A stretch of DNA of 64,000 nucleotides. Origin: Actinomycetota bacterium (lineage in GTDB: Bacteria > Actinomycetota > Geothermincolia > Geothermincolales > RBG-13-55-18). Under the pieces are notes generated by a model that searched no databases, was not told the DNA's origin, and saw only the letters and a program-made list of their open reading frames with translations. Position 1 is the stretch's first letter, and each line of letters opens with the position of its first letter. Positions 2,505 to 27,089 of this stretch are shown one piece after another. The position numbers and the translations under genes are program-made. Where the stretch lies: the NCBI GenBank assembly GCA_003598015.1, contig QZKE01000021.1, forward strand, positions 10,701 through 74,700, given 5' to 3'.

Positions 2505-2505
2505 C

Positions 2506-3234
2506 ATGGAAAAGGTAAGCGTGATCATCGACGGCAGGACCTTTGAGGCCGTGAAAGACCAGTGCGTGCTGGAAGTGGCGCACGCCAGCGGCATCTACAT
2601 CCCTTCGTTGTGCTACAACAGCGAGGTGACGAGCAGCGGCGGCTCCTGCCGCGTCTGCCTGGTGGAGGCCCATCAGAGAGGCAGGATGAGATTGGTCACT
2701 TCCTGCAACTACCCGGTGCGCGAAGGCCTGGAGGTAAAGACGGATACCCCCCTGGTGCACGGGATTCGCAGGGGCGTGCTGGAACTGCTGATGGCGCGCG
2801 TGCCGGACTCGGAAGTCATCCGGGAGATGGCCGCCGCTGAAGGGCTGAACGATGTTCGCTTCCGCAGGGATGAGGGCGAGAACGACCGCTACAAGTGTAT
2901 CGCCTGCGCGATGTGCACCAACGTCTGCGCCGAAGTGGTGGGCGTTTACGCCATAGCCATGACGGGCCGCGGAGCGGACAAGAAGCCCGCCACTCCCTAT
3001 TACAAGCCATCGGATGTGTGCATCGGCTGCGGCGCCTGCGCCTATGCCTGCCCCACCGGAGCCATCACCATCACGGAGGAGGATGGCATGCGCCGCATAT
3101 GGGGCAGGGATTTCAACATGGTCACCTGCAGCGTTTGCGGCACCCCCTACATTCCAGAAGCCCAGGTGGACTGGATAGTGAGGACAACCGGCAAGGACAG
3201 GTCGTTCTTCGATAAATGCCCCGATCACAGGTGA
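2506..3234 (+). CDS. HoxU / NuoG-N-terminal-like Fe-S subunit (2Fe-2S plus 4Fe-4S motifs), no catalytic domain
   Basis: 242 aa. N-terminal 2Fe-2S pattern (CYNSEV..SCRVCLVE..SC), then CIACAMCTNVC and CIGCGACAYACP. No H-cluster, molybdopterin or NiFe domain. Starts 2 nt after the NuoF-like stop. Confidence 0.75.
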   Translation: MEKVSVIIDGRTFEAVKDQCVLEVAHASGIYIPSLCYNSEVTSSGGSCRVCLVEAHQRGRMRLVTSCNYPVREGLEVKTDTPLVHGIRRGVLELLMARVPDSEVIREMAAAEGLNDVRFRRDEGENDRYKCIACAMCTNVCAEVVGVYAIAMTGRGADKKPATPYYKPSDVCIGCGACAYACPTGAITITEEDGMRRIWGRDFNMVTCSVCGTPYIPEAQVDWIVRTTGKDRSFFDKCPDHR

Positions 3235-3291: not shown

Positions 3292-5499
<2,208 letters not shown>

Positions 5500-5824: not shown

Positions 5825-6580
5825 ATGTTCGATGAAGCGGAGTTCGAGAAAGCTCTGGCCACACCGAGGCTGCGGCAACCGCTGCCGGATTTCCTCCACG
5901 GCAACCGCGGGGGAGGCAAGGTCCGGGTCCTCGCCGAGCCCGAGCTTAATGCCATGACCAGGCAATGGTTCGTGGACTACGAGCGCAAGATCCAGCACTA
6001 CGCCGAACACGGCATCGACGTGGGCTGGACCCTCGAATGGTCCAAGAAATACTGGTGGAGCTGGCTTATGCGCGACATGTCCATGAACGACGAGCTCTAT
6101 GAGCCGGATCTACGCTACCGGGACGTGTCAACGTTCGGCCGGACCATCGTCGGCCTGGACGAGTTCGTGAAATATAACTTCGCGTTCTTCGACGCCATCC
6201 CCGACTGGCGGTACGATCCCCTTCCCGGGCAGATCTTCGTCGATCTCACCCCGGAAGGAGAGGTGCGTATCGTCGTACGCTACCTCGGCAGCGGACACTG
6301 GAGCGGCCCCCTCCGGCTCTACCCCTACGACGAGACAGCCCCCGCCCTCTACGGAACCGGCGTTTTCGTGCAGTGCGCGGGCATCGACCGCTACCATTTC
6401 AACCGGGAGGGGAGGATGTACGAGGGCGAGACCCTGTATGACATCCTGGAGGCGACACAGTCCGCCGGTATCCTGCCCCGCGACGACAGCTGGCAATTCC
6501 ACGCGCTGATGAAATCCACTAGACTGCTTGGAACCCTGCGCAGCCTACGGCAGAGAATCCCCTTTCTACAGAGTGGATAG
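5825..6580 (+). CDS. hypothetical protein, probably NTF2/SnoaL-like fold
   Basis: 251 aa, with a G-rich RBS (GGGGAGAGGGGGAG) upstream of the ATG. The C-terminal half (...IVVRYLGSGHWSG...TGVFVQCAGIDRYHFNREGRMYEGETLYD...) resembles the SnoaL/ester-cyclase pattern. This is a weak assignment. Confidence 0.4.
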   Translation: MFDEAEFEKALATPRLRQPLPDFLHGNRGGGKVRVLAEPELNAMTRQWFVDYERKIQHYAEHGIDVGWTLEWSKKYWWSWLMRDMSMNDELYEPDLRYRDVSTFGRTIVGLDEFVKYNFAFFDAIPDWRYDPLPGQIFVDLTPEGEVRIVVRYLGSGHWSGPLRLYPYDETAPALYGTGVFVQCAGIDRYHFNREGRMYEGETLYDILEATQSAGILPRDDSWQFHALMKSTRLLGTLRSLRQRIPFLQSG

Positions 6581-6809: not shown

Positions 6810-6858
6810 TTGACAATCGCCGATCTGTATTATAATCTAATATGAAGTCTTATAATAC
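6810..6858 (+). promoter_or_regulatory. candidate sigma70-type promoter plus 9-bp inverted-repeat operator upstream of the IclR gene
   Basis: TTGACA at 6810-6815. TATAAT at 6831-6836 gives a 15-nt spacer; TAATCT at 6833-6838 gives a 17-nt spacer. Perfect inverted repeat GTATTATAA (6827-6835) / TTATAATAC (6850-6858) with a 14-nt spacer, in an AT-rich island. Confidence 0.45.
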
Positions 6859-6876
6859 AATACATAGCGAGAAGCG

Positions 6877-7665
6877 ATGGAAAAGAAAAACCCCAATGCG
6901 ATCGAGAAGGCGCTTGATATACTGCAGGCGTTTACTCCTTATAACCAGGAGATGGGAACGGGCGAGATAAGCGACACGCTGGGGCTGCATAAGGCTACCG
7001 CATCACGTATCTTGCGTACTCTGGCCGATAAAGGCTTCCTGCAGCAGGATCCCGATACGAAGAAGTTCACCCTGGGGCCTGTCGCCTCCGACATAGGCCG
7101 TGCCTATAACAACGGTTTGAGCTCCAACCTCGTGCAACTTGCAAAACCATATATAGATGATCTGAGAAGCTCCCTCGAGGAGACCGTGGTACTAGAAGTC
7201 CTCTCTGGTGAGAGCACGGTGATGGCCTACATCGCCGAGGGGCCTCAACGTGTGCGTATAGCGGGGACGGTGGGAGACAGGTTGCCCGTGCACGCGGCGG
7301 CGGGAGCAAAAGCCATCCTTGCCTTTTCTCCGCCAGAAGTCATCGAGAAACTGATAGGGACGGACCTGCAGCCCTTTACCGCGAAGACCATAACCAGTAA
7401 AAAAGCTTACAGGAATGAACTCTCCAAGATACGCCGCCAGGTGTTTTCGTTCGACGGGGAGGAGATAGACATCGGTATCAACGCCGTAGGCGCACCCATT
7501 TTCAACCACGAGGACAGGGCGGTAGCAGCGGTGGTAATAGCGGGACCTGCCCAGCGGGTTACGGGCGCGGGAGATTCCGAGGTGGTGCGGAAGGCAAAAG
7601 AGACGGCGGCGAATATCTCCGCACGCCTGCATTACGGAGGAGGTAACGCGGATGAGCGGAGTTAG
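6877..7665 (+). CDS. IclR-family transcriptional regulator
   Basis: 262 aa. N-terminal wHTH (IEKALDILQAF...GTGEISDTLGLHKATASRILRTLADKGFL) and a C-terminal IclR effector domain. Overlaps the next gene by 14 nt. Confidence 0.9.
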   Translation: MEKKNPNAIEKALDILQAFTPYNQEMGTGEISDTLGLHKATASRILRTLADKGFLQQDPDTKKFTLGPVASDIGRAYNNGLSSNLVQLAKPYIDDLRSSLEETVVLEVLSGESTVMAYIAEGPQRVRIAGTVGDRLPVHAAAGAKAILAFSPPEVIEKLIGTDLQPFTAKTITSKKAYRNELSKIRRQVFSFDGEEIDIGINAVGAPIFNHEDRAVAAVVIAGPAQRVTGAGDSEVVRKAKETAANISARLHYGGGNADERS

Positions 7666-8404
7666 GCTATATGACCTCAGCCAGACCTTCGGACATAATG
7701 CCCCCCTCTGGCCATATTTCCCCGATGTGAAAATCGAACGCTTCCATTACCACGCCAAATCGGGTGTACTCTCCCAGCAGATAACAACGTTCATGCATTG
7801 CACCACCCACGCCGATTCCCCGGCCCACGTCATCGAGGGCGCACCATACACCGACGAGATCCCCCTCGACAGCTATTACGGCACCGGGGTGGTTGTGGAC
7901 ATCCCTAAAGGGAAGTGGGAGGTCATCACGCCTGACGACCTGGAGAAGGCGGAGCCGAAGATCGAGACGGGTGATATCGTGATCATCCGCACCGGCTGGC
8001 ACCGTTACTACAGCGACTCGCGACAGTACTTCGCCTACTCACCAGGGCTCTACCGCGAGGCAGGGGAATGGTTCGTGGAGAGGAAGGTCAAGGCGGTAGG
8101 AGTGGACCACCAGGCCCTTGACCATCCTCTGGCCACGGCCATCGGGCCCCACGGAACCGGTCCCCTGCTCCCCGACGTCTGCGAGGAGTACCGAGCGGAG
8201 ACGGGCCGCGAGGTCATAGAGGACTTCCCGGAGTGGGAGCCCTGCCACCGCCTCCTTTTAGGCAACGGGATCATGGGTTGGGAAAACGTAGGTGGGGATA
8301 TAGACAAAGTGGTTGGCAGACGCGTTATCATCGCCGGATTCCCCATACGGTGGGAGAGAGGGGACGGGTCCATCGTCCGCCTCGTGGCCATCGTTGACGA
8401 ATGA
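7652..8404 (+). CDS. cyclase-family metal-dependent hydrolase (kynurenine-formamidase-like fold)
   Basis: 250 aa. HCTTHADSPAH matches the HxxTHxDxPxH metal motif of the putative-cyclase family. The RBS GGAGGAGG lies 8 nt upstream of the ATG. Confidence 0.8.
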   Translation: MSGVRLYDLSQTFGHNAPLWPYFPDVKIERFHYHAKSGVLSQQITTFMHCTTHADSPAHVIEGAPYTDEIPLDSYYGTGVVVDIPKGKWEVITPDDLEKAEPKIETGDIVIIRTGWHRYYSDSRQYFAYSPGLYREAGEWFVERKVKAVGVDHQALDHPLATAIGPHGTGPLLPDVCEEYRAETGREVIEDFPEWEPCHRLLLGNGIMGWENVGGDIDKVVGRRVIIAGFPIRWERGDGSIVRLVAIVDE

Positions 8405-8418
8405 AGGGGGGTAGCGAC

Positions 8419-8760
8419 ATGAAGAAAGTGGAGTTGAAGGACGCCAAACCCTATCAGGCGCCCAAACATTTCGGTATGACCGCCTTGAGGCTGCACGGAC
8501 GGGAGGAAACCGGGTCTCAGACCTTCTGGGTCGGTCTTTCCCGTTTCCTTCCGGGAGGGGGCGCCGAGTTCGATGCCTCTCCGGCGGAGAAGGTCTATTT
8601 CGTCCTGGAGGGAGAGGTGACTATAAAGTGCCAGTCCGGCGAGGTGAACACCCTCGGCCCCTGGGATTCCATCTACATCGGGGCGGAAGAGTCGAGGGCG
8701 ATCGTAAACGAGACCAACCAGCCCGCCAGCATGCTGGTGATTATCGGTTACACCGAGTGA
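8419..8760 (+). CDS. cupin-domain protein
   Basis: About 113 aa. The small beta-barrel pattern (...FWVGLSRFLPGGGAEFDASPAEKVYFVLEGEV...) is cupin_2-like. ATG 8419 has an AAGGGGGG RBS. The alternative ATG 8401 forms an ATGA overlap with the upstream stop. Confidence 0.7.
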   Translation: MKKVELKDAKPYQAPKHFGMTALRLHGREETGSQTFWVGLSRFLPGGGAEFDASPAEKVYFVLEGEVTIKCQSGEVNTLGPWDSIYIGAEESRAIVNETNQPASMLVIIGYTE

Positions 8761-8789
8761 ATGCAACGGGGCAAGGAAGGACTACCACG

Positions 8790-9569
8790 ATGCAGGTCGA
8801 GGAGATAAAAAACCTATTCGACCTCTCCGGAAGAGTGGCTGTTATCACCGGCGGCTCTGGGGGACTGGGACGGGCGGCGGCGGCAGGGTTGGCAACCTAC
8901 GGCGCCTCCGTAGTCATCACCGCCCGTAGGGTGGAAGCCCTGGAGGAAGCGGCGGCCGCGATCAGGCATGGGGGAGGTGAAGTGCTCCCTGTAAGTTGTG
9001 ATGTTACCGATGGGAAGAATGTCGAGGCCATGGTGGAGCGGACGCTGCGTGAATTGGGCAGAATCGACATCCTGCTTACCGCGGCGGGGATAGCCAGGCG
9101 CGCTCCCGCCGAGGAGCTGGGCATGGAGGATTGGGACCTGGTTATGGACACCAACGTCAAAGGCACTTTCCTCTGCTGTCAGGAGGCCGGAAGGGTCATG
9201 ATCAGCCAGGGAGGAGGCAAGATTATCACCGTATCCTCGGTCCGCGCCATCCTGGGCCATCCCCTCGGCTACGCCGCCTATGGGACGAGCAAGGGGGCCA
9301 TTAATCTGCTCACCCGCCAGCTGGCGGTGGAATGGGCCAAGCACAAGATAAACGTGAACTCCATCGCTCCCTGCATCTTCCGCACGCCCCTGACGGAGCC
9401 GGTCCTCTCCGATCCAGAGTCGGCGAAGGTATTCCTGGACCGCATCCCCTGGGGGCGGGCGGCGGAGCCTGAGGACTTTATCGGGTCTGCGGTCTTCCTG
9501 GCCTCGGCGGCATCGGACTTCATTACCGGGCAGATCCTCTATGTGGACGGCGGAAACGCCGCAAGCTGA
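8790..9569 (+). CDS. short-chain dehydrogenase/reductase (SDR)
   Basis: 259 aa from ATG 8790, with RBS AAGGAAGG. Motifs ITGGSGGLG (TGxxxGxG) and YGTSKGAI (YxxxK). The ORF-track start at 8628 overlaps the cupin gene and is unlikely. Confidence 0.9.
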   Translation: MQVEEIKNLFDLSGRVAVITGGSGGLGRAAAAGLATYGASVVITARRVEALEEAAAAIRHGGGEVLPVSCDVTDGKNVEAMVERTLRELGRIDILLTAAGIARRAPAEELGMEDWDLVMDTNVKGTFLCCQEAGRVMISQGGGKIITVSSVRAILGHPLGYAAYGTSKGAINLLTRQLAVEWAKHKINVNSIAPCIFRTPLTEPVLSDPESAKVFLDRIPWGRAAEPEDFIGSAVFLASAASDFITGQILYVDGGNAAS

Positions 9570-9587
9570 CGGGGGCGTGGATGAGAC

Positions 9588-10523
9588 ATGGACGGAGACG
9601 GCATGGGAAGGATTTCTGTCATAGGCGCCGGTCTCATGGGTCACGGTATAGCCCAGGTCTTCGCGGCACACGGACACGCGGTTTCCCTCATGGATGTGGA
9701 GCAGAGCTGTCTCGAACGAGCTTTGACGAATATCCGCGAAAGCCTCGCGCTGCTAGCGGAATACGATATCGTTCGAAGTGAGGATAGGGATGTAATCATC
9801 GATAGGATAACCACCACCACCAGCCTGCAGGAGGCCGCCGCCGGGGCGGATTTCGTCATCGAAGCGGTCTCGGAGAGACCAGACCTCAAGCGAAGCATCT
9901 TCCGCGAACTGGATGCGCTATGCCTGCCGCGGACAATCCTGGCCACCAATACCTCGGTTATCAGCATCACGGAGATAGCACGGGATGCCGCCAGCAGGGA
10001 GCGCGTCGTGGGAACCCACTTTTGGAATCCTCCACAACTGATTCCCCTGGTCGAGGTGATCCCCGGCCGAGACTCGGCCCCCTGGGCGATAGACCGCGCG
10101 TATGATCTCTTGCGTTCCGTGGGCAAGCACCCCGTGCGGGTGAAGAAGGACGCGCCCGGCTTCGTCGGCAACCGCATGCAGCACGCGCTGTGGCGCGAGG
10201 CCATCTCCATCGTGGAGCGTGGCATTGCCGATGCCGAGACGGTGGACGAGGTGGTGAAAATGGGATTCGGCCTGAGGCTGCCGGTGCTCGGCTCCCTAGA
10301 GAACGCGGACATGGTCGGCCTGGACCTCACCCTGCATATACACGACTACATCTTGCGGCATATCGAGGACTCACATGAGCCGTCGCGTCTCCTGAAGGAA
10401 AAGGTGGAGAGAGGAGAACTGGGGTTTGCGAGCGGAAGGGGATTAAAAGAGTGGACGCCGCAGAAGATGGGGGCATGCAGGGCTGGCTTGCAACGACACT
10501 TGATGGAATGGGGGAGCAGATGA
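9588..10523 (+). CDS. 3-hydroxyacyl-CoA dehydrogenase-family NAD-dependent dehydrogenase
   Basis: ISVIGAGLMGHGIAQ Rossmann motif, HFWNPP, GFVGNRM. ATG 9603 (MGRISVIGAG) is an equally good start. Confidence 0.85.
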   Translation: MDGDGMGRISVIGAGLMGHGIAQVFAAHGHAVSLMDVEQSCLERALTNIRESLALLAEYDIVRSEDRDVIIDRITTTTSLQEAAAGADFVIEAVSERPDLKRSIFRELDALCLPRTILATNTSVISITEIARDAASRERVVGTHFWNPPQLIPLVEVIPGRDSAPWAIDRAYDLLRSVGKHPVRVKKDAPGFVGNRMQHALWREAISIVERGIADAETVDEVVKMGFGLRLPVLGSLENADMVGLDLTLHIHDYILRHIEDSHEPSRLLKEKVERGELGFASGRGLKEWTPQKMGACRAGLQRHLMEWGSR

Positions 10524-11002
10524 ATGCGGATAGTCGGGGAAAGCGAACCGCGGCCGCTACGGCCAGTAGGCCGCAAGAAAGGCTGGTGGTCGAGGACGGA
10601 GAAAACATGCATGTGCTGGGCCGTTTCTTCCAGGCCATGCTCCTGAACCTCTTGAAGGAGCCGTCTAAGGTCAAGGCCGCCGAGGGGATGGATCTGACGG
10701 TGGCCGTCGATCCCTCGGGCCACCCCGACAATGCTTTGACCATGACCTTTTCAGGCGGACGGGTGATCCTGGAGAGCGGCATCGTGCCCGATGCGGACAT
10801 CGTACTTAAGTGCGAGACGGCGGTGCTGATGAAGCTGGCGCGCATACCCGCCGGGCCGGCTGTTGTTGGTTTTCTGAGGACACACGAGGGAAAGGCGCTC
10901 GTCGCCAGGATGCGCTCGGGCGAGCTGAAGATAAAGGGCATCACCCGGCATCCGTTGATGATGATGAGGTTCTCGAAATTCCTGGCTCCAAGCGCCGGTT
11001 GA
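10520..11002 (+). CDS. SCP2 (sterol-carrier-like) domain protein
   Basis: 160 aa from ATG 10520, which forms an ATGA overlap with the upstream stop. The ...DLTVAVDPSG...LTMTFSGGRVILESG...DADIVLKCETAVLMKLARI...ELKIKG pattern is typical of SCP2 domains. Confidence 0.6.
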   Translation: MNADSRGKRTAAATASRPQERLVVEDGENMHVLGRFFQAMLLNLLKEPSKVKAAEGMDLTVAVDPSGHPDNALTMTFSGGRVILESGIVPDADIVLKCETAVLMKLARIPAGPAVVGFLRTHEGKALVARMRSGELKIKGITRHPLMMMRFSKFLAPSAG

Positions 11003-11018
11003 TAGAGGGGGAGCGCGA

Positions 11019-11237
11019 ATGAACACGATTAACATCAACCTCGATGCTTGCGACGGGTGCATGACGTGCGTCAAGGCCTGCTTCGCAAACGTCCTGCGCT
11101 GGGAGAAGCCCGCGATGAGCCCCGTAGTGGCATACGCTGAAGACTGTGTCCACTGCAATGTCTGCGAGCTCTCTTGCCCGCGGGGTTGTATCGAGGTAAT
11201 CCCGGATTTCGCGTACATGCGCTGGTCGGCTCTTTAG
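11019..11237 (+). CDS. 2x[4Fe-4S] ferredoxin (AprB-N-terminal-like)
   Basis: 72 aa. CDGCMTCVKAC and CVHCNVCELSCP. Confidence 0.85.
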   Translation: MNTININLDACDGCMTCVKACFANVLRWEKPAMSPVVAYAEDCVHCNVCELSCPRGCIEVIPDFAYMRWSAL

Positions 11238-11281
11238 GCTCGGGGGATCGTTCCAGCGCAAGACCTTAGCAGGGGAAAGGG

Positions 11282-13006
11282 GTGAATGCCATGGCTGAAC
11301 TCGCATCACTGGGAGAGTCGATATCCACCGATATCTGTATCATGGGCGGCGGAATCGCGGGCCTCACCGCCGCCATCACCCTCAAGGAGAAGAGTCCCCA
11401 TCTCGACGTCCTTATAGTCGAGAAGGCCACTACCGGCTGGGCCGGAAAGGCGGACAGGGGCGGCGGGATACTGGCCTTCCTCACCCCGGATGATATCCCA
11501 GACGATTTCATACGCTTTCACGTGCACAACATCGGCTGCTTCCTCGAGGACCAGGAGCTGCTGAGCGAATACGCCCATACCTGCAACAGCGTTCTGGACT
11601 ACCTCGATGCCTGGGGGGCGAAACTGGCCAAGGAGAGGGACGGCAGCTGGAAGTACATAAAAACGCCCGGGGTGGATGTCCCGTGGGGCATGGCCAGCGT
11701 GGAGCTGGACATGTGCCGGTGCCTGCGCAAGCACGCCAGGAAGCTGGAGTGCAGATTCCTGGACAGAACGACCATGGTGGACCTGCTCAAGGAAGACGAC
11801 CGTGTCGTGGGTACCATCGGGTTCAGTATCGAGGACGGCGGCTGCTGTGTGGTAAGGTCTAAGGCGACCATCCTCGCCAACGGCAGCCAAAACTACCGCG
11901 TCCTCCCCATGTGGAGTCCCGGCCGCGGCGACGGCATAGCCGCGGCCTACCGCGCCGGAGCGCAGATGAGGAACGCCGAGTTCGGAAGCTTCGTGAACAT
12001 GGTGCACGCGGCGAGCCGCGAGGTCATCTTCGGCGCCGAGGACCACATGTACAACGCCTCCGGGGAGGACATATCCGCGAGGTACCGCCCCGGTGTCCAA
12101 CCGGACATCTGTGCCATGTCCGCCATCGGATGGTACAAGGAATACTTGAACAGCAACGGACCGGTGAGGATCAAGAGCGACGAGAACGTCCTCCAGGCCG
12201 GCGCGGAGGTTCTCTTCGCGAGCGACCTGGTCTGGGACCGCCCCGCTGCCATCGCCTTCTGGTCGCGCCTTTGGGAGAAGGGGAAGTCTGTCGAGGTCGA
12301 AGGCGCCGCGAATATGCCCGAGGTCATCCCGGGCTTCGTGGGAGAGCAATCGCCGGTCAAGGTCGATCACGGCATGGCCACCACCCTGCCGGGTCTCTAT
12401 GCCGTGGGGGACGTCAGCTACAGCGGCTCCGCATGGACGGGCGCCGTTCCTTCTCCGCCCGGCCGCATTCGCGGCACCGGCCTCATGAACGCGGTGTGGA
12501 GTGCCCGCAGGGGAGCCATGGCCGCGGCGGCGTACGCGGCTGGACTGGTCGAGATCCCTGGCGTGGACCACGCACAAGCCGCGGAGCTGAAGGAGAGGAT
12601 CTTCGCGCCCCTGCGCGGGGACAGGGGCGTCTCCGCCCTCGATCTCGTACGCGCGATCCAGGATGCGATAACCCCCGTTCGGTACAGCAACTGGAAAAGC
12701 GAGGAGCGTATGCGCGAGGCCCTGGGCAAGGTCCTCGAGGTCAAGGGCAGGCTGGCTGACCTGACGGCCGCCGATCCGCACGACCTGTCCCGCTGCAACG
12801 AGGCGGTGAGCATGGCCCTCTGCGCGGAGATGTTCTACCGCGCCTCCCTGGAGAGAAAAGAATCGCGTGGCTGGTTCGTGCGGGAGGACTACCCGGAGAC
12901 GGACAACGCGAACTGGCTGAAGTGGATCGTCCTCGAGGACAAGGACGGTGAGATGTCCGTCTCCACCGAGGATATCCCCATGGCTAGATATCCCATCAAG
13001 GTGTGA
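11282..13006 (+). CDS. FAD flavoprotein of the fumarate reductase / succinate dehydrogenase / AprA superfamily
   Basis: 574 aa. ICIMGGGIAGLTAA dinucleotide fold, LPGLYAVGDVS, and the C-terminal ERKESRGWFVREDYPETDNANW motif typical of this family. Confidence 0.85.
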   Translation: MNAMAELASLGESISTDICIMGGGIAGLTAAITLKEKSPHLDVLIVEKATTGWAGKADRGGGILAFLTPDDIPDDFIRFHVHNIGCFLEDQELLSEYAHTCNSVLDYLDAWGAKLAKERDGSWKYIKTPGVDVPWGMASVELDMCRCLRKHARKLECRFLDRTTMVDLLKEDDRVVGTIGFSIEDGGCCVVRSKATILANGSQNYRVLPMWSPGRGDGIAAAYRAGAQMRNAEFGSFVNMVHAASREVIFGAEDHMYNASGEDISARYRPGVQPDICAMSAIGWYKEYLNSNGPVRIKSDENVLQAGAEVLFASDLVWDRPAAIAFWSRLWEKGKSVEVEGAANMPEVIPGFVGEQSPVKVDHGMATTLPGLYAVGDVSYSGSAWTGAVPSPPGRIRGTGLMNAVWSARRGAMAAAAYAAGLVEIPGVDHAQAAELKERIFAPLRGDRGVSALDLVRAIQDAITPVRYSNWKSEERMREALGKVLEVKGRLADLTAADPHDLSRCNEAVSMALCAEMFYRASLERKESRGWFVREDYPETDNANWLKWIVLEDKDGEMSVSTEDIPMARYPIKV

Positions 13007-13081
13007 TGGTTTGACCGGGACCGATCGCTGCGGCAAGCCTTCACGCATAGAGGTCGAGGTGAATAGCAAGGAGGGTGAGAG

Positions 13082-13960
13082 ATGGGCCTGAGAAGCATGT
13101 TCGTGAGGATGGGGAAGGTATTCCCAGACCCGGTGAGCATGGACGACATCAGGAAAATGAAGCGCCGGGAGCTGACGGAGGAGGAGAAGGGCAAACCGTA
13201 TGAAAAGTACTACTTCAAGGAACTGGCCGAGATCCCCGCAGCCGACCTGGAGAAGGTCAACGCGGGACCCGTCGATCCCGCCGACGTCACCCCCATCCAG
13301 AACCGTAACGACCTCATGAAGCCGGGATACCTGGAGGTGGAGACCGGATACACCGTCATGCCGGACGGCAGCGGTTTCGCGGCCACGCTGGTGAAGATGC
13401 CGGGGGTGACGCCCGAGATGCTCGACTGGTGGTTCAACTGGCATCCCCTGGAGGGACTGAGGTACGCCATCTGGTGCCCGGTGGCGCATACCGACATCAG
13501 CGTGGAGAATCCCGCCCGGCACCTGGATAGCTCTGGAGTTCCCCTTGAAGAGAGGAATTACGGCAGCACCCACTACCCGGTCGAGGGTTTCAACACGGCG
13601 AGTTCGCAGAAGGTATGGATCGAGTTCTTCTCGCCGCAGGATTTCGGCCTGGACATGGCGATGTTCAAGGAGCCGGAGATATCCCGGGCCTACTGCGCCA
13701 ACGTTATCCTGGACCTTATGAAGACGCCCTTCAACGCGTTCTTTCACTCCGTACGTGAGGTCGAGGACGGGGTGGAGTACCGCAGCCGCTACTGGCTCGG
13801 CTACACCATGAACAACGGCGTTCCCAGGAGGGTGAAGCGGCCCCTGCCTTACAAGATGAGCGACCTGGCGCGCAACAACTGCCTGCACAGCCTCATCGAG
13901 TATAACAACCTGGCGTCTTTCCTGCCGCAGATATACGAGGAGATGGACGGCAGGATCTAG
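13082..13960 (+). CDS. probable DAPG-hydrolase / phloretin-hydrolase-family C-C hydrolase
   Basis: 292 aa. MPGVTPEMLDWWFNWHPLEGLRYAIWCPVAH and RSRYWLGY match my memory of the PhlG/Phy family. This needs HMM confirmation. Confidence 0.55.
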   Translation: MGLRSMFVRMGKVFPDPVSMDDIRKMKRRELTEEEKGKPYEKYYFKELAEIPAADLEKVNAGPVDPADVTPIQNRNDLMKPGYLEVETGYTVMPDGSGFAATLVKMPGVTPEMLDWWFNWHPLEGLRYAIWCPVAHTDISVENPARHLDSSGVPLEERNYGSTHYPVEGFNTASSQKVWIEFFSPQDFGLDMAMFKEPEISRAYCANVILDLMKTPFNAFFHSVREVEDGVEYRSRYWLGYTMNNGVPRRVKRPLPYKMSDLARNNCLHSLIEYNNLASFLPQIYEEMDGRI

Positions 13961-14011: not shown

Positions 14012-14848
14012 TTAGTCTTTCCTGGTCATTGCCAGCAGGATCTTTTTGACTTGATCGATCACCTCCTGCTTATCGTACTTGCCGAAAATCCAGTGGAGCT
14101 CCGCGGTGTATTCCGCGAAGCCCATGAGGGCGAATCCGATGATCTCGGGATTCATTTCCTGCAGGATCCCCCGGTCGACGGCTCTCTCCACGTCCCTGAT
14201 AACAGGCCTGACGATGTAGTCCAGGCTCTCCTTGTACTTCTCCATGAAGGCCGGATTGTCTGCGACGGCGATACCCCGCAACTGGTTCATCATATCCCGC
14301 CATTTGGGGTAGGCATCGAAGAAGGCGTCGGCTCTCTTGATGAGACGCTGGATAATATCCTCCTCCTGCCGTATGCTGTCCCATACTTGGTTGAACATCT
14401 GGTGGAAGATGTAATCGGTGCACTCTATGAAGAGCTCCTCCTTGTTGGCGAAGTATATGTAGAAAGTGGATTTACTCATCTGCAATTCGGAGACGATATC
14501 CTGGATACTCGTTTTGTCGTAACCCTTCTGGGTAAAAAGCCTCGCAGTCGTCTGGATGATCTCTTGCTTCCTGTCGATTGACACCCCCTTGCTTTCGGGC
14601 ATCTGCCTCTCCGCCTCATAGCGTTCCAGTTCATCCACGATGAACCTGATGGGCATATTCTCCTCTTCCCGCAGATTCTTGATGAGCTTGAGCCGGTCTA
14701 CTTGCTCTTCCGTGTAGTAAGCCATCGTCTTTCCGGTCTTTATGTGTGGGGATATAAGGCCCTCGCGTGCGTAATATCTGATAGTGGACTTGGGGATACC
14801 GGTCAGCGTCTCCAGTTCGCTTATCGTCAAGTATTTCTGCTTATCCAT
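14012..14848 (-). CDS. dual-HTH regulator: N-terminal MerR-type HTH fused to a complete TetR/AcrR-type regulator
   Basis: 278 aa. LTISELETLTGIPKSTIRYYAREGLI is a MerR HTH. IIQTTARLFTQKGYDKTSIQDIVSELQMSKSTFYIYFANKEELF is a TetR HTH, followed by a helical ligand domain. GC is visibly lower than in the neighbours. Confidence 0.8.
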   Translation of the reverse strand: MDKQKYLTISELETLTGIPKSTIRYYAREGLISPHIKTGKTMAYYTEEQVDRLKLIKNLREEENMPIRFIVDELERYEAERQMPESKGVSIDRKQEIIQTTARLFTQKGYDKTSIQDIVSELQMSKSTFYIYFANKEELFIECTDYIFHQMFNQVWDSIRQEEDIIQRLIKRADAFFDAYPKWRDMMNQLRGIAVADNPAFMEKYKESLDYIVRPVIRDVERAVDRGILQEMNPEIIGFALMGFAEYTAELHWIFGKYDKQEVIDQVKKILLAMTRKD

Positions 14849-15025: not shown

Positions 15026-15085
15026 TTGACATATCCCCGGAGCATTTTTATACTATGATAATGTACCGTACCGTACGTTAGTACA
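15026..15085 (+). promoter_or_regulatory. sigma70-type promoter and GTAC-repeat operator candidate for the thiolase operon
   Basis: TTGACA 15026-15031, 17-nt spacer, TATACT 15049-15054. Immediately downstream lies TGTAC-CGTACCGTACGTTA-GTACA (15062-15085), containing four GTAC cores. Confidence 0.5.
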
Positions 15086-15147: not shown

Positions 15148-16350
15148 ATGGATAGAGGAGAGTTCGCGATTATCGGCACGGGAGAGGTGCCCTGCGGTAA
15201 CTATCCCGAGCGCTCGGAGTTTGAGACAGCCTATACCGTAGCCCGGGCAGCCATCAGGGACGCGGGGATCGATAAGGATGAGATCGGGGCGGTGGTATGC
15301 GCCCAGCATATCATGTCCAACCCCAACAACGACTACAACACGGAGATGGTATTCGGCAGACTGCCCGAGGCCATCGGGGCCAAGGGATGCAGGATCACCT
15401 GCATGACCTCATCGGGAGGCGCCTCCAGTTTCTCGCTGCGCAAGACGGTGGAGGGCATTCTGCATTCCGGAGAGACGGATACCGTCCTGGTGGTCCACGC
15501 CCAGCGTTTCTCCACCTTCACCCCCAACGAGCAGGCCAAGTATTTCTCCATCGCCGGCTCCGACGTGGAATGGGAAGTACCCTACGGCATGACCTATAAT
15601 GCCCTGGCGGCCATGGTCACCCAGGGATATATGGCCTACACGGGAACCACGATAGAACAGGTAGCCTCCGTCTGCGTCGCATGCAGAAAATGGGCCATGC
15701 TGCAGCCCAACGCCATGTTCAATAAAAAGGAGATAACCGTCGAGAAGGTGCTCTCGAGCCGCATGGTCGCCTACCCCCTTACCGCCTTTATGTGCAACGT
15801 ACTGGCCGACGGCGGCAGCGCCTTCGTCATGACCACCGCGGAGAAGGCGAAGAAGGTATGCGACAGACCGGTGTATATCCTGGGCGATGCCTCGAGCTAT
15901 TCCCATCGCACCATAACCAGGTCCAAGTCAAGGGACCTGGCCAAGATGGGCGAGTCCATGGCGCCCGTGGCCAGGGAGGCATACGAAAAGGCCGGCCTGG
16001 GGCCGGAGGACATGGATATCTACCAGGTCTACGGTTCTTATCCCGCCCTACAGCTCATCGTCATGGACGCCCTGGGCATCTGTGAGCCGGGGCGCTCCGG
16101 CGCTCTCGTGGAATCCGGCGAAACCTCACCCGGCGGAAAGTACCCGGTGACCACCAACGGCGAAGCGCTCTCCTTCGGCCATACCGGTACCGGCGTAGGC
16201 ATCGCCCTGCTGGTGGAGTCGGTACGGCAACTGCAGGGTAAGGCGGGCAAGGCCCAGGTGGAAGGTGCCAGGTTCCTGGTCGAGAACACGGGCGGTGGGG
16301 CCTTCATGGACTGCCACTTCACGATCCTGGGCAACGAGATTCCCCATTAA
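15148..16350 (+). CDS. thiolase-superfamily protein, SCP-x/BbsB-type (partner of a DUF35 protein)
   Basis: 400 aa with RBS AAAGGAG. Thiolase-like N- and C-domains (...CMTSSGGASS..., ...NTGGGAF...). Followed by a DUF35 gene, as in BbsAB-type pairs. Confidence 0.8.
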   Translation: MDRGEFAIIGTGEVPCGNYPERSEFETAYTVARAAIRDAGIDKDEIGAVVCAQHIMSNPNNDYNTEMVFGRLPEAIGAKGCRITCMTSSGGASSFSLRKTVEGILHSGETDTVLVVHAQRFSTFTPNEQAKYFSIAGSDVEWEVPYGMTYNALAAMVTQGYMAYTGTTIEQVASVCVACRKWAMLQPNAMFNKKEITVEKVLSSRMVAYPLTAFMCNVLADGGSAFVMTTAEKAKKVCDRPVYILGDASSYSHRTITRSKSRDLAKMGESMAPVAREAYEKAGLGPEDMDIYQVYGSYPALQLIVMDALGICEPGRSGALVESGETSPGGKYPVTTNGEALSFGHTGTGVGIALLVESVRQLQGKAGKAQVEGARFLVENTGGGAFMDCHFTILGNEIPH

Positions 16351-16384
16351 GACAAGCGTCTGGACAGAGCGTACGTCTTCAACG

Positions 16385-16855
16385 ATGAAGGAGGATGGAA
16401 AGGTGAGCGAGCAAAATGTAAGCATAAAGGACTTGCTGGGTCTTTCGGATGAAGAGATGCTGAAGCCCCTCCCGATCCCCACCAAGTGGTCCCAGCCCTT
16501 CTGGGACGCGGCAAAAGAGCATCGCCTGGTGCTCAAGAAGTGCAGCACATGCGGCAACATCGATCACCCGCCCTACCTCTACTGCACCGCCTGCCAGGCC
16601 GACGAGCACGAATGGATCGAGGCATCGGGCAAGGGAACCCTCTACGCGTATGCCGTCAACCATTTCGGAGTCCCCTTTCCCTTCTGGGATGACATGCCGT
16701 ACGTGCTGGCCATGGTCGACCTCCCGGAGGGTCCGCGCATGATCTCGAATATCGTGGAGTGCGACATCGAGAAGCTCGCGAACGGCATGGAGCTGGAGGT
16801 GGTCTTTGACGATGTATCCGGCGAGATCACCCTCCCCAAGTGGAAGCCTGCCTGA
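16385..16855 (+). CDS. DUF35 Zn-ribbon / OB-fold protein (BbsA-like thiolase partner)
   Basis: Rubredoxin-like CSTCGN...CTAC followed by an OB-fold (GTLYAYAV...VLAMVDLPEGPRM...). GTG 16403, with GGAGG 8 nt upstream, may be the true start. Confidence 0.8.
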   Translation: MKEDGKVSEQNVSIKDLLGLSDEEMLKPLPIPTKWSQPFWDAAKEHRLVLKKCSTCGNIDHPPYLYCTACQADEHEWIEASGKGTLYAYAVNHFGVPFPFWDDMPYVLAMVDLPEGPRMISNIVECDIEKLANGMELEVVFDDVSGEITLPKWKPA

Positions 16856-16885
16856 GGCCCAACCGGCGTGTGAAAGGAGCAGGAT

Positions 16886-17680
16886 ATGCCGGACTATCAA
16901 TACCTCATCTACGAGATAGAGGAGAATATCGGAAGAATAACCCTGAACCGCCCCAAGAAGCGCAACGCCCTCAATGCGGAGCTCATCGCCGAGCTCAAAG
17001 AGGCGGTGCCGCGCATGAACGCGGAGCCAGAGGTACGCTGCGCCATATTAACCGGAAGCGGAGACAAGGCCTTCTGCGCCGGCGCGGATCTCCCCATCTT
17101 CGACACCCTGCAGGAGGTGGAAAAGGCCTACGCTTACCTGCGCAACGACGGGGGAACCATCACGCGTGCCCTGGAGACGGCGGAGTTTCCCTGGATAGCG
17201 GCCGTGAAGGGCGCCTGCGTGGCGGGAGGGCTGGAGCTGGCCCTGTGCTGCGACATGATCGTGGCGGGCGAGAACTCGTTATTCGGCGTGCTGGAGATAA
17301 ACATCGGGCTGCTTCCCGGGTGGGGAGGTACGGTACGCTTGCCCAGGGCTATCCCGGTGCGCAAGGCCAAGGAGCTTCTCTTCACCGGGGCGATGATCGA
17401 TGCCCAGGAGGCATGGCGCCTGGGGTTGGTGAACAAGGTGGTCGCGGTGGACCAGGTGGAGGACGAGGCCATGAACATGGCGCGCACCATCGCTTCCAAG
17501 TCAAGGGCCGCCGTTCGCGCGGGAATGAACATCGTGAATAACTCCCTTACCTGTGACGACATCGACGCCGCCCTGGCCATCGAGCGGGGCACCATCATGA
17601 CCCTGGTGGGCGCGGAAGAGACGCGCAAGTACCTGGAGCCGGCCATCCGCATGATGCAGGATATGGAAAAGAAGGGTTGA
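16886..17680 (+). CDS. enoyl-CoA hydratase/isomerase (crotonase family)
   Basis: 264 aa. FCAGADL and GGLELALCCDMIVA oxyanion-hole segments. Confidence 0.9.
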   Translation: MPDYQYLIYEIEENIGRITLNRPKKRNALNAELIAELKEAVPRMNAEPEVRCAILTGSGDKAFCAGADLPIFDTLQEVEKAYAYLRNDGGTITRALETAEFPWIAAVKGACVAGGLELALCCDMIVAGENSLFGVLEINIGLLPGWGGTVRLPRAIPVRKAKELLFTGAMIDAQEAWRLGLVNKVVAVDQVEDEAMNMARTIASKSRAAVRAGMNIVNNSLTCDDIDAALAIERGTIMTLVGAEETRKYLEPAIRMMQDMEKKG

Positions 17681-17693
17681 GAGGGGAGCGCAT

Positions 17694-18854
17694 ATGGACT
17701 TCATGCTGACCGAGGAACAGAAGATGCTCCGGGATACCTTCCGCGAGTTTTCGCAGAAGGAGCTTACGAAGGAGTACGTACGGTGGTTGGATGAGAACTG
17801 CGACTTCCCCCCCGAGGACATGGTCAGAAAAATCGCGGACCTCGGCTTCTTCGGCATCTCCATTCCCGAGGAATACGGGGGAGCCGGAGCGGGCATGTTC
17901 GACCTTTGCGTGGCCCTGGAGGAGCTGGCCACGGCCAGTGTCGCCATGGCAATATCCATGGGGCTCACGCCCGCCTTCGGTGGAAGGCCCGTTGCCGAGC
18001 TGGGCACGGAGGAGCAGAAGCGCGAGCACCTGCCCAAGATCGCCGAGGGGAAGGAGAAGTGGTGCATGGCCCTGACGGAGCCCGCCGGGGGAACCGACAT
18101 CCTGGGGGCCATCGCCACCACCGCCGCAAGGGACGGGGACGCATACGTCGTGAACGGCTCGAAGATGTTCATATCCGGCGCCCACGTGGCGGATTGGATA
18201 TTGCTGATAGCCATCACCGACAAGGAGGTCAAGCGCTCGAAGGGCCTTTCCGTCTTCATCGTCGATGCCCGCAGCCCCGGCGTTACCATCAACCTCATCG
18301 ACAAGGTCGGCATCCATGCCTGCGGCACCACCGAGATCTTCTTCGAGGACGTGCGGGTTCCGGCGGCCGACCTGCTGGGTAGCGAGAACATGGGCTGGTA
18401 TCACATCCTGGGCACCCTCAACCCTGAACGTATCGGCACCTCCATGCTTTCGCTGGGCATCGCCAAGGCCGCCTTCGACGATGCCCTGCAGTATGCCAAG
18501 GATCGTACGGCCTTCGGCAAGCCCATAGGACAGTTCCAGATCATCCAGCACTATCTCGCGGATATCGCCATCGAGATCGAGAACGCCCGCAACCTCATTT
18601 ACAAGTGCGCATGGCTATGCGATGCGGGTGAGCGTTACGACGTGGAGGCCACCATGGCCAAGATCGTTGCCTGCCGCGCCTCGGAAAAGGCGGCCCTGCA
18701 CGGCATGGAGATATTCGGCGGGTACGGTTTCACCATGGAATACGACATGCAGCGGTACTTCCGCGACTACAAACAGATGATGTTCAGCCCCATCTCGGAC
18801 GAGATGAGCATGAACTATATCGCCCAGAGCTATGGACTGCCCAAGTCATATTGA
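17694..18854 (+). CDS. acyl-CoA dehydrogenase
   Basis: 386 aa. LTEPAGGTDI, and C-terminal FGGYGFTMEYDMQRYFRD. Confidence 0.9.
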   Translation: MDFMLTEEQKMLRDTFREFSQKELTKEYVRWLDENCDFPPEDMVRKIADLGFFGISIPEEYGGAGAGMFDLCVALEELATASVAMAISMGLTPAFGGRPVAELGTEEQKREHLPKIAEGKEKWCMALTEPAGGTDILGAIATTAARDGDAYVVNGSKMFISGAHVADWILLIAITDKEVKRSKGLSVFIVDARSPGVTINLIDKVGIHACGTTEIFFEDVRVPAADLLGSENMGWYHILGTLNPERIGTSMLSLGIAKAAFDDALQYAKDRTAFGKPIGQFQIIQHYLADIAIEIENARNLIYKCAWLCDAGERYDVEATMAKIVACRASEKAALHGMEIFGGYGFTMEYDMQRYFRDYKQMMFSPISDEMSMNYIAQSYGLPKSY

Positions 18855-18881
18855 GTGGTTGGCAATAGAGGAGGGATCTAG

Positions 18882-20438: not shown

Positions 20439-20455
20439 GGATTCAGGAGGTTATC

Positions 20456-21820: not shown

Positions 21821-21873
21821 GAAGGCATCAGGCAAGTTCGCGGCCGGCGAAGCCTCAAGTCAAGGAGGAGATC

Positions 21874-22893: not shown

Positions 22894-23153
22894 GTTCCGT
22901 CAAGGAAGGCCTTTCGCGTCGACGGGATCGAGGTCGGATGCGGGTTGTGAGAAGCCGCTTTTCTCGTGCAGGGATGGCGGCGCCTATGAGGCTGCGAAAA
23001 AGTCACCGTACGACATTCGCTTTGGACGACATGGCGAGGGCGATTGGCTCAATGTGCGCGCAGGAAACTCAATGCCTATATCCGGAACGGAGTAAGATAG
23101 TCACATCGTTTGGTGGAAACGGGAAATACCGTTGCATAGACAGGGGGTGCACC

Positions 23154-23774
23154 ATGGAGATCTCGGTAAGTGATTGGTTGCAGGCTGCGGACCACGAGGT
23201 CGAATTGCGACGATGGCGTGAGCAGTCCGGCGGAAAGACGAAGCACTTTTCGGTCGAACATCATTTCCCGCACACCTCCCCCGAGATGGTTTTCTGGTAC
23301 CTGACCAACTTCGACCGTGAATCATACCTTATGTGGCACCCCGCGCATATCGGACTGCAGTGGGAAGATAAAGTGGCGGGGCCTGGCGCCATACATATCG
23401 CATGGGAAAAGGTCCTGGGGAAGCTGGCGGCATATCGCATCCGTCTGGATACGCCGGATGTGTCTCCCATCCCCCCAAAGGAAACGAGTATCGCAGTTAT
23501 GTTGAACGTCATCGATACGGAAGGCGAGATCCTTTTCTACATCCTCAACGAGATCGAGCAGGTAGCCGAGGGGATGAAGATAACCTGCACCTTTATATTC
23601 CCCGAGGCGGCCCCTGAGGAGTTTATCGAAGCCCATCGCCAACACAACATCGAGGAACTACAGGGTCTGGTAAACAAGGCGGTTCCTTATCTGATCCAGA
23701 AGACCTTCGGCTATATGATCGAGCCCGGGAAGCTGGCCGCATACGGTCTGATCGTCCCGGCGGATGCTTCGTAG
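23154..23774 (+). CDS. hypothetical protein (local resemblance to the core of the 13082-13960 hydrolase)
   Basis: 206 aa from ATG 23154, with RBS AGGGGG. SPEMVFWYLTNFDRESYLMWHPAHI compares with [27 protein letters not shown]. The ORF-track N-terminal extension from 22938 is not protein-like. Confidence 0.5.
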   Translation: MEISVSDWLQAADHEVELRRWREQSGGKTKHFSVEHHFPHTSPEMVFWYLTNFDRESYLMWHPAHIGLQWEDKVAGPGAIHIAWEKVLGKLAAYRIRLDTPDVSPIPPKETSIAVMLNVIDTEGEILFYILNEIEQVAEGMKITCTFIFPEAAPEEFIEAHRQHNIEELQGLVNKAVPYLIQKTFGYMIEPGKLAAYGLIVPADAS

Positions 23775-26953: not shown

Positions 26954-27089
26954 GTCTATATCCATACGGGGTCTCAAGGGAAACCGAGAGCGACCGGAAT
27001 CCGCATGATGGTAGGATTTAGGCGGATCAGGAGCTTAGGCGCCGGGCCCGCCCAATGGCAATAGGCTTGCATAAGAGTGCGATCAGCAC

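Follow-up and report, generated by a model that had tools for sequence, protein, structure and literature searches.

Phloroglucinol is a hub of the oxygen-free mineralisation of flavonoids and tannins, and its turnover bears on carbon storage in peat and sediment as well as on the polyphenol products formed in the gut. The anaerobic phloroglucinol route, known mainly from Firmicutes, consists of an SDR-type phloroglucinol reductase (PGR), a Mn2+-dependent dihydrophloroglucinol cyclohydrolase of the cyclase family (DPGC), a dehydrogenase with the 3HCDH fold (TfD) and a BKACE-type triacetate acetoacetate-lyase (TAL) (Zhou 2023, PMC10470551). Phloroglucinol clusters that include a DAPG_hydrolase have already been reported in Mycobacterium (Zhou 2023, PMC10470551). 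In the gut pathway of Eubacterium ramulus and Flavonifractor plautii, which comprises flavone reductase (FLR), chalcone isomerase (CHI), Fcr/ERED and phloretin hydrolase (Phy), phloroglucinol is released by the last enzyme, a C-C hydrolase. Here, a stretch of 64,000 nucleotides (the window) from contig QZKE01000021.1 of an Actinomycetota bacterium (GCA_003598015.1) was analysed, which carries at 6877–13960 a nine-gene operon headed by a regulator of the IclR family. Judged from the encoded protein families, this IclR-controlled operon would very likely funnel acylphloroglucinol-type plant compounds to ring-opened C6 acids, and the host is an uncultured, probably anaerobic actinobacterium. The core of the operon is of a known type, since phloroglucinol and DAPG hydrolase clusters have been published before. 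What appears to be undescribed is a layout lacking BKACE and a conserved ferredoxin–flavoprotein partner of Phy-type hydrolases. The operon and 78 loci found with it provide a testable candidate, an iron-sulfur flavoenzyme that travels with a C-C hydrolase in at least four phyla.

The candidate phloroglucinol block

The window operon and the phloroglucinol cluster of Clostridium scatologenes (PGR, DPGC, TfD, TAL; PMC10470551) share the first three enzyme families and a regulator at the head of the cluster. The window differs in that the cyclase comes first and is shorter (250 aa versus ~312 aa), that the SDR is 37–47% identical to the Firmicutes PGR orthologues, and that a BKACE-type TAL, a CoA-transferase and a canonical thiolase are missing. 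Instead, genes for a cupin, an SCP2-like protein, a ferredoxin and a flavoprotein are added.

All nine open reading frames (ORFs) lie tightly packed on the + strand at the coordinates given in the first-pass annotation, which a model had made from the sequence alone, and a public metagenome gene call of the source contig (JGI metagenome 3300038436) contains identical models. The IclR and cyclase genes overlap by 14 nt. The cyclase and cupin genes overlap by ATGA, as do the 3HCDH and SCP2-like genes if the latter starts at 10520 (the gene caller prefers 10475). The remaining gaps measure 29 nt between cupin and SDR (counted from the true SDR start, ATG 8790), 18 nt between SDR and 3HCDH, 16 nt between SCP2-like gene and ferredoxin, 44 nt between ferredoxin and flavoprotein, and 75 nt between flavoprotein and hydrolase. 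The co-directional arrangement claimed earlier was thereby confirmed. GGAGG-type ribosome-binding sites are present at most of the inspected genes. Three other Actinomycetota metagenome-assembled genomes (MAGs; loci L001, L002 and L007) retain the gene order at 56–94% amino-acid identity. Hence, the arrangement is real and conserved and not a product of chance.

The gene following the regulator (7652–8404, +) encodes a cyclase-family metal hydrolase of 250 aa (Pfam Cyclase, 3.7e-37), the candidate DPGC, with the motif HCTTHADSPAH. Its closest solved structures are isatin hydrolases (~1e-11), which are likewise the nearest solved relatives of CsDPGC (PMC10470551). The residues Trp20 and Tyr22 set CsDPGC apart from isatin hydrolase (Zhou 2023, PMC10470551), and both are found in the window cyclase (...APLW20PY22FP...). 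In an alignment with 13 cyclases from phloroglucinol-type clusters, W20-P-Y22-F and H-x3-H-x-D-x3-H were common to all cyclases encoded beside PGR, TfD or BKACE genes. A second signature was seen in the 3HCDH-fold enzyme of 311 aa (9588–10523, +; 3HCDH_N 6.3e-62, 3HCDH 4.4e-20), a candidate (S)-3-hydroxy-5-oxohexanoate dehydrogenase of the TfD type. In CsTfD, Lys56 and Asn221, by which 3-hydroxybutyryl-CoA dehydrogenase binds CoA, are missing, and the Ser, His and Asn residues are retained (PMC10470551). Aligned to the C. butyricum enzyme HBD (4kue), the window protein has Ile in place of Lys56 and Gly plus a loop insertion in place of Asn221, and the equivalents of Ser117, His138 and Asn188 are retained. 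By its residues the enzyme shows the published TfD signature and is a candidate dehydrogenase of the free-acid type.

Between the cupin and the 3HCDH gene lies that of a classical SDR of 259 aa (8790–9569, +; adh_short_C2 3.5e-62), the candidate NADPH-dependent PGR. It occupies the conserved cupin-SDR-3HCDH-cyclase position and is 37–53% identical to SDRs of the same syntenic position; a Firmicutes SDR at that position (L042) matches the SDR 5g4k at 1.1e-101. Where the NADPH motif TR(S/N) was compared, the window SDR reads T-A-R-R. The Pfam models Cyclase, SDR, 3HCDH and DAPG_hydrolase (see below) all matched, at 3.7e-37 to 7.7e-66, and the phloroglucinol funnel proposed in the first-pass annotation gains support from Trp20/Tyr22, the TfD signature and the family match of the hydrolase.

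The likeness to phloroglucinol degradation might also be superficial. The SDR would then be a sugar-acid or FabG-type enzyme, the cyclase arylformamidase-like, the 3HCDH enzyme active on CoA esters and the AprA-like pair part of sulfur or dicarboxylate metabolism, with some other compound being degraded. Such a reading would account for the best NCBIfam and PDB matches of the SDR, both gluconate-5-dehydrogenase-like, for arylformamidase as the sole NCBIfam match of the cyclase, and for fumarate, APS and PAPS reductases as the best named matches of the flavoprotein. However, all of these matches lie far below the curated cut-offs, the active-site His residues of FrdA and AprA are replaced in the flavoprotein, and no sat, qmo, dsr or sdhB/C genes were found near the operon in the window. 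The WPYF and TfD signatures and the synteny with BKACE-containing clusters favour phloroglucinol, and we regard a merely superficial likeness as extremely improbable.

The small cupin of 119 aa (8401–8760, +; Cupin_2 1.5e-9) has homologues of 45–83% identity adjoining the SDR gene in 16 loci of several phyla. An alignment of all 20 homologues revealed that the canonical cupin ligand motif HxH...E...H is missing in this family, as are the metal-dependent cupin motifs G(X)5HXH(X)3-4E and G(X)5PXG(X)2H(X)3N; the conserved block reads FW-G-LS(H/R)FLPGGGA...EK-Y-VLEGE and contains no His ligands. A role as quercetinase-like or Dke1-like dioxygenase was ruled out because of these absent ligands, and a role as TAL substitute because Firmicutes have the cupin and BKACE side by side. 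The cupin goes unmentioned in the published work, in which the pathway was reconstituted with four enzymes (Zhou 2023, PMC10470551). It is a regular conserved accessory of the PGR/TfD/DPGC block and no peculiarity of the window operon.

The hydrolase and the ferredoxin–flavoprotein pair

The last gene of the operon (13082–13960, +) encodes a C-C hydrolase of 292 aa. Its assignment to the DAPG/phloretin hydrolases, on which the first-pass annotation had staked its reading, stood: the match to DAPG_hydrolase (PF18089) is full-length, covering model positions 4–223 of 223 at 7.7e-66. The closest solved relatives are the M. abscessus phloretin hydrolase 5xe5 (2.6e-40) and PhlG 3hwp (8.6e-37). H136, E168, H269 and E273, the presumed Zn ligands by comparison with the PhlG structure, are kept in 48–50 of 50 homologues. 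The protein shares the Pfam family, the His/Glu residues and a similar length with PhlG, E. ramulus Phy and 5xe5; it is 33–38% identical to the E. ramulus homologue, and its N-terminal region is ~20 residues longer. Against the PhlG equivalog NF047887 it reached 126.7 bits. As this misses the 600-bit cut-off by a wide margin, the hydrolase is no PhlG orthologue.

Downstream of the operon, a 278-aa ORF (22938–23774, +) has no Pfam match and is homologous (9e-21) to a 188-aa protein encoded between flavoprotein and hydrolase in L007 (11760–12326), which itself matches DAPG_hydrolase at 1.6e-14. By this sequence relationship, the 278-aa ORF probably encodes a second, highly divergent or truncated DAPG-hydrolase-like protein.

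Directly upstream of the hydrolase gene lie those of a 72-aa ferredoxin with two [4Fe-4S] clusters (11019–11237, +; Fer4 families, motifs CxxCxxCxxxC and CxxCxxCxxxCP) and of an FAD flavoprotein of the fumarate-reductase/AprA superfamily (11282–13006, +; 574 aa from a GTG start or 571 aa from ATG 11291; FAD_binding_2 1.9e-22, Succ_DH_flav_C 2.7e-15). A genome-wide scan with the homologue alignment returned 78 loci with 90 copies of the flavoprotein. A ferredoxin homologue stands directly upstream in 86 of the 90 copies, which is also the gene order of aprB-aprA. The ferredoxin is thus likely the small subunit of a two-subunit enzyme. A DAPG-hydrolase gene is found within 1.5 kb on the same strand in 56 of the 90 copies. 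The loci span Actinomycetota, Desulfobacterota (Desulfobacterales), Holophagales and Bacillota, the last including E. ramulus, Roseburia, Sporobacter termitidis, Fusibacter, Anoxynatronum and Alkalibacter. Among the cultured carriers are Fusibacter sp. 3D3, Anoxynatronum buryatiense and Holophaga foetida. In a distance tree, the flavoprotein clades follow the type of neighbour, which may be a DAPG hydrolase, an S15 CocE/NonD hydrolase or an EthD protein. This match between clade and neighbour argues for functional coupling over accidental linkage, and we consider it likely that the flavoenzyme and the hydrolase are coupled in function.

The S15-type loci (L008–L013, L018, L027 and L036) contain a paralogous ferredoxin–flavoprotein pair followed by an S15 hydrolase of the CocE/NonD type. 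The EthD-type loci (L022, L040, L044, L054, L067 and L078) have a paralogous pair followed by an EthD-domain protein and an ABC transporter, and in Holophagales proteins with two EthD domains and of CHI-like size precede the hydrolase.

About 18 loci combine the trio of hydrolase, ferredoxin and flavoprotein with the cupin-SDR-3HCDH-cyclase block. In Fusibacter, Anoxynatronum and related loci the trio abuts cupin-PGR-TfD-DPGC-BKACE and an MFS transporter. Homologues of chalcone isomerase (9e-12 to E. ramulus CHI, 3zph) were found in 11 loci, with the order ferredoxin-flavoprotein-hydrolase-CHI in L022 and L062 and ferredoxin-flavoprotein-CHI in L024. Cassettes with CHI hold all published steps from flavanone to phloroglucinol except the reductase, which in the known pathway is Fcr/ERED. 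In L001, a corrinoid protein gene and three URO-D O-demethylase genes flank the operon, which fits methoxylated plant phenolics.

An arrangement with the pair adjacent to the DAPG hydrolase in more than half of the copies would also be expected if both formed a second ring reductase and a beta-diketone ring hydrolase, parallel to PGR and DPGC, that act on resorcinol or on acyl- or alkyl-resorcinols by low-potential reduction and retro-Claisen opening. Resorcinol reductase is described as ferredoxin-dependent, a literature search gave no genes for it, and DAPG-type hydrolases perform retro-Claisen cleavage of beta-dicarbonyl systems. Yet the E. ramulus hydrolase in the same arrangement is as long as the characterised phloretin hydrolase, which reportedly has no need of a reductase in vitro (Schoefer 2004). 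Moreover, the 5-oxohexanoate formed from resorcinol would not feed the TfD step, and the co-location with chalcone isomerase and the phloroglucinol pathway would be left unexplained. We judge a resorcinol route very improbable.

The flavoprotein has its best PDB sequence match in the archaeal PAPS reductase alpha subunit 8a8o (9.5e-27). The predicted model (pLDDT 87) gave 8a8o, FrdA and AprA as best folds at 20–22% identity and TM scores of 0.78–0.80; these structural matches are at superfamily level and do not reveal the substrate. Every NCBIfam cut-off was missed by far, the best model being PRK08275 (184 bits versus 587), and the aprA equivalog TIGR02061 was matched with 57.7 bits at a cut-off of 641.75 bits. 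FrdA His44, His232 and His355 are not conserved, His44 aligning with Gly; the HPT motif is absent, and the GGH motif of PAPS reductase aligns to G-E-Q, which replaces the active-site His. The equivalent of FrdA Arg390 is retained (R395). A function as APS/PAPS reductase or as fumarate reductase was ruled out, given the failed curated models, the replaced key His residues and a context without sulfur or respiratory genes. By sequence, the flavoprotein is a member of an uncharacterised subfamily of the fumarate-reductase/AprA superfamily, and its more than 200 homologues in protein collections all carry generic database names.

AprBA and the PAPS reductase 8a8o share with the window pair a small 2x[4Fe-4S] ferredoxin gene placed 5' of an FAD subunit of ~570 aa, and the FAD is apparently non-covalent in both. 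In contrast to AprB, the window ferredoxin has no long tail, and the surroundings are those of aromatic catabolism, with no sulfur genes. With the soluble enzymes of the fumarate-reductase family (fumarate, urocanate and acrylate/cinnamate reductases, 3-ketosteroid delta-1-dehydrogenase) the flavoprotein has the FAD_binding_2 fold and a capping domain in common. Reduction of C=C bonds beside a carbonyl or carboxyl group is typical of the superfamily, as in fumarate, urocanate and acrylate reductases and KstD, and the chemistry in common would be the transfer of a hydride to, or its removal from, a C=C bond in conjugation with a carbonyl. The window enzyme differs from these in that a dedicated ferredoxin subunit would supply its electrons in place of haem, FMN_bind or OYE modules, and in the loss of the carboxylate-binding His.

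The retained R395 and the carboxylate binding typical of Frd-family flavoproteins would suit a role of the pair after the hydrolase, on the released side-chain acid. The pair might be a hydroxycinnamate or arylacrylate reductase, an arylpropionate dehydrogenase, or a dehydrogenase of the aryl-lactate/arylpyruvate type in the auronol branch that ends in arylacetates, with the hydrolases merely freeing an acid from varied conjugates. Distinct hydrolase families do pair with distinct flavoprotein clades, IorA-like genes for arylpyruvate:ferredoxin oxidoreductase occur in seven loci, and in the window an operon with ligase, acyl-CoA dehydrogenase, enoyl-CoA hydratase and thiolase-like genes follows. 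In addition, the enzyme converting alphitonin to 3,4-dihydroxyphenylacetate and phloroglucinol was still listed as unknown in a 2025 study. However, E. ramulus excretes arylpropionate as an end product, with phloretin as intermediate, so that an unsaturated acid is not expected, and the carboxylate-binding His232 and His355 of FrdA are not conserved. In L042, L051 and L063, the clusters are limited to the genes of the hydrolase, the pair and the phloroglucinol pathway and have none for the acid. Action on the released acid is thus unlikely, and we prefer to place the flavoenzyme ahead of the C-C cleavage.

In E. ramulus ATCC 29099, the pair is part of a four-gene island that encodes an FMN reductase resembling FabK, a DAPG hydrolase of 274 aa, the ferredoxin and the flavoprotein (pair WP_021737970/WP_021737969), and is flanked by an integrase fragment and the glycogen genes glgC/D. 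The published E. ramulus Phy reportedly also has 274 aa (Schoefer 2004). The E. ramulus flavoprotein belongs to a 90%-identity cluster of 702 members. The trio around a Phy-type hydrolase, predicted to release phloroglucinol, is common to the window and to the gut organism, and CHI homologues are present in related loci, whereas the window itself lacks CHI, FLR and Fcr. Fcr/ERED, an NADH enzyme of the OYE type, does not share ancestry with the AprA/FrdA-fold flavoprotein; its Oxidored_FMN and FAD/NAD(P) domains were not found by Pfam in the operon flavoprotein, which has only FAD_binding_2 and Succ_DH_flav_C, and the likeness we propose is one of function only.

The NMO-family gene beside the E. 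ramulus hydrolase had been considered as the flavone reductase FLR; this was dropped, as a PDB search identified the FabK-like 7l00 (3.6e-73) and no FLR match. Such a FabK-like FMN reductase of the NMO family adjoins the trio in E. ramulus (L033, 1226–2209) and in 13 other Lachnospiraceae/Eubacterium loci, and a role of it in flavonoid degradation appears to be undescribed.

Full-text literature searches tying Phy or DAPG hydrolase to a ferredoxin or flavoprotein gave nothing relevant, and a review of August 2026 mentions neither the BKACE-less layout nor the ferredoxin–flavoprotein partner. Ten STRING partners of F. plautii phy have been expressed and were assayed for flavone reduction only (Yang et al. 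2021). Around the Phy step, some enzymes are still entered as unknown in reviews and in the 2025 study.

The sixth gene of the operon (10520–11002, +) encodes a small SCP2-like protein of 160 aa (175 aa from 10475). The Pfam match to SCP2 (E = 0.013, 16.2 bits versus a cut-off of 21.3 bits) is the weakest family call of the operon. In the predicted structure, the core has pLDDT values of 84–90 at a mean of 68, and the top Foldseek matches are all of SCP2 fold (UbiJ-SCP2, AF1534 and Thermus SCP2; probability ~1.0, E ~3e-3, TM 0.39–0.56). The sequence match thus falls short of the Pfam cut-off, and the predicted SCP2 fold is moderately supported by the model. The family comprises 43 members, every one closely related, and among the related loci the gene was found in L001, L002, L004, L006 and L007 only, always immediately 5' of the ferredoxin. 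The protein is possibly a carrier of a hydrophobic ligand. The first-pass annotation had counted the cupin, SCP2, ferredoxin and flavoprotein genes as four without a place in the published route. The SCP2-like gene alone is lineage-specific; the cupin regularly accompanies the phloroglucinol block, and the ferredoxin–flavoprotein pair regularly accompanies Phy-type hydrolases.

A proposed route and the fate of triacetate

In the route we propose, the substrates would be dihydrochalcones, chalcones or fragments derived from flavonoids. The ferredoxin and flavoprotein would form an ene-reductase that is independent of NAD(P)H and fed through iron-sulfur clusters, saturating a chalcone-type enone at its alpha,beta double bond before C-C cleavage, and the SCP2-like protein would pass on the poorly soluble substrate. 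The hydrolase would cleave the acyl side chain off the phloroglucinol ring to give phloroglucinol and a carboxylic acid. Phloroglucinol would be reduced to dihydrophloroglucinol by the SDR with NADPH, the Mn-type cyclase-family hydrolase would open the ring to (S)-3-hydroxy-5-oxohexanoate, and the TfD-type dehydrogenase would oxidise this free acid to triacetate (3,5-dioxohexanoate). As a whole, a funnel with a coupled flavoenzyme is probably the best explanation of the operon; which substrates are turned over, in which direction the flavoenzyme works and what becomes of triacetate are inferred. That the flavoenzyme is specifically a chalcone or enone reductase is a tentative assignment by guilt of association, and one we hold with some doubt.

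The wider proposal is that the pair is an unrecognised but widespread enzyme of anoxic flavonoid and acylphloroglucinol catabolism. Forming a unit with Phy-type hydrolases, it would operate in Actinomycetota and Desulfobacterota of soil and sediment as well as in Lachnospiraceae of the human gut, and would perform either the step attributed to Fcr or one assigned to an unknown enzyme, such as the cleavage of auronols to arylacetates; the window would in addition be independent of BKACE for triacetate. We give this proposal an even chance. If the pair is indeed a low-potential reductase, current assumptions on the balance of electrons and energy in flavonoid degradation without oxygen would change, and polyphenol turnover in metagenomes would gain a new marker gene.

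Several observations weigh against the proposed route. The window SDR scored 202 bits to 1vl8, a Thermotoga 'gluconate 5-dehydrogenase', versus 160 bits to 5g4k; we take the latter to be the Clostridium PGR, and its PDB label reads merely SDR oxidoreductase. The best NCBIfam match, too, is the gluconate-5-dehydrogenase-like one mentioned above. Because 1vl8 outscores 5g4k, the SDR is a candidate PGR through its conserved synteny, and membership in an unrelated clade, which the first-pass annotation had named as a point against its reading, may still apply to it. The chemistry of the flavoprotein is unreadable from its sequence, since the catalytic residues of FrdA and AprA are mostly replaced, and 33 copies of the flavoprotein have no DAPG hydrolase nearby. 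A chalcone isomerase gene was sought in the window and none was found. In the E. ramulus island, the FabK-like ene-reductase could be the C=C reductase instead. An ene-reductase role of the pair would be redundant in this organism because Fcr, which performs the step from flavanone to dihydrochalcone in E. ramulus, is already present. That the 274-aa E. ramulus protein is Phy is suggested by the matching length and by the E. ramulus MAGs that Goris et al. reported to carry >90%-identical Phy matches. Finally, the fate of triacetate is left unexplained by the route.

A BKACE gene follows the block in 12 of the ~18 loci with a phloroglucinol block. In the window, tblastn with 10 BKACE proteins (PF05853, 1.3e-96) found nothing, and none was called in ~82 kb of the 92.7-kb source contig. 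L001, L002 and L007 likewise have none less than 10 kb away from their operons. The terminal enzyme reported missing in the first-pass annotation is indeed absent from the window and from these ~82 kb. Some lineages would thus carry the phloroglucinol route in a form without the known triacetate lyase, and triacetate must be handled elsewhere, as no BKACE lyase is encoded here. The adjacent operon with ligase and thiolase-like genes is, by its proximity, a candidate that perhaps handles triacetate after CoA activation. A DeoC/LacD aldolase (40809–41879, –) was considered as 3-hydroxy-5-oxohexanoate aldolase and was read as glycolytic; it adjoins phosphofructokinase and HMG-CoA reductase genes.

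In the Holophagales loci L043, L060 and L061, where the block has the order hydrolase-cyclase-cupin-SDR-3HCDH, genes for a two-subunit CoA-transferase and a thiolase come next and replace BKACE. This arrangement fits an older CoA-dependent scheme via triacetyl-CoA that was reportedly proposed for Pelobacter acidigallici. In the window, no genes for a family-I CoA-transferase, a canonical thiolase, a Mo-oxidoreductase or URO-D/corrinoid proteins were found, except for a URO-D-like fragment. This fragment (28913–29078, –) consists of two short tblastn matches, of 64–69% identity over 25–32 aa, to the URO-D-type methyltransferase in the L001 operon, and may be the remnant of an O-demethylase gene.

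Regulators and neighbouring genes

The IclR-family regulator of 262 aa (6877–7665, +; HTH_IclR 1e-16, IclR_C 4.5e-39 in Pfam) lies under all NCBIfam equivalog cut-offs. Upstream of its gene is a putative promoter and IclR operator (6810–6859, +) with the boxes TTGACA (6810–6815) and TATAAT (6831–6836) and a spacer of 15 nt; the consensus promoter scanner demands 16–18 nt and hence did not flag it. The inverted repeat noted earlier near 6827–6858 is perfect, with 10-nt arms at 6826–6835 and 6850–6859 that overlap the promoter boxes (TGTATTATAA-N14-TTATAATACA). The IclR orthologues of L001, L002 and L007 are likewise preceded by a TTGACA box and then similar AT-rich palindromes. Convergent to the operon and divergent from the next one lies a gene for a MerR-TetR fusion regulator (14012–14848, –; MerR_1 1.5e-19, TetR_N 8.3e-17). 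Homologues of 26–35% identity are encoded directly upstream of ferredoxin–flavoprotein cassettes in Desulfobacterales (L004, L005) and in many Thermoleophilia loci, and the regulator possibly belongs to the same regulon as the IclR operon.

A second operon (15148–22893, +) follows behind a near-consensus promoter (15026–15054). Its products are a thiolase-like protein of the SCP-x type and its DUF35/ChsH2-type partner, together with an enoyl-CoA hydratase, an acyl-CoA dehydrogenase, an AMP-ligase, an OYE flavoprotein and an Amidohydro_2 protein. The operon could serve to oxidise the arylpropionate that the hydrolase would set free, or to activate triacetate. In L007, the IclR operon is immediately preceded by the gene of an 89%-identical Amidohydro_2 protein.

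Just upstream of the IclR gene, a protein of 251 aa with a weak SnoaL/NTF2-like match is encoded (5825–6580, +). As the Desulfobacterales locus L005 encodes a homologue of 65% identity at a distance of 4 kb from the trio, the window protein may belong to the same pathway. A four-subunit 2-oxoacid:ferredoxin oxidoreductase, followed by proteins resembling NuoE, NuoF and the N-terminal part of NuoG, is encoded at 648–3234 (+) and, on the source contig, ~4 kb further upstream (L080, 6562–9996). These genes may form an electron module of low potential in the vicinity of the operon. A KatG catalase-peroxidase (3292–5487, –) is encoded in this otherwise anaerobe-like context. After the second operon, genes for a protein of the HpaB/4-hydroxybutyryl-CoA-dehydratase family (498 aa) and an FAD-linked oxidase (FAD_binding_4, 580 aa) were found at 25457–28832 (+). 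Homologues of the FAD-linked oxidase are also encoded near the trio in L032, L038, L062 and L067.

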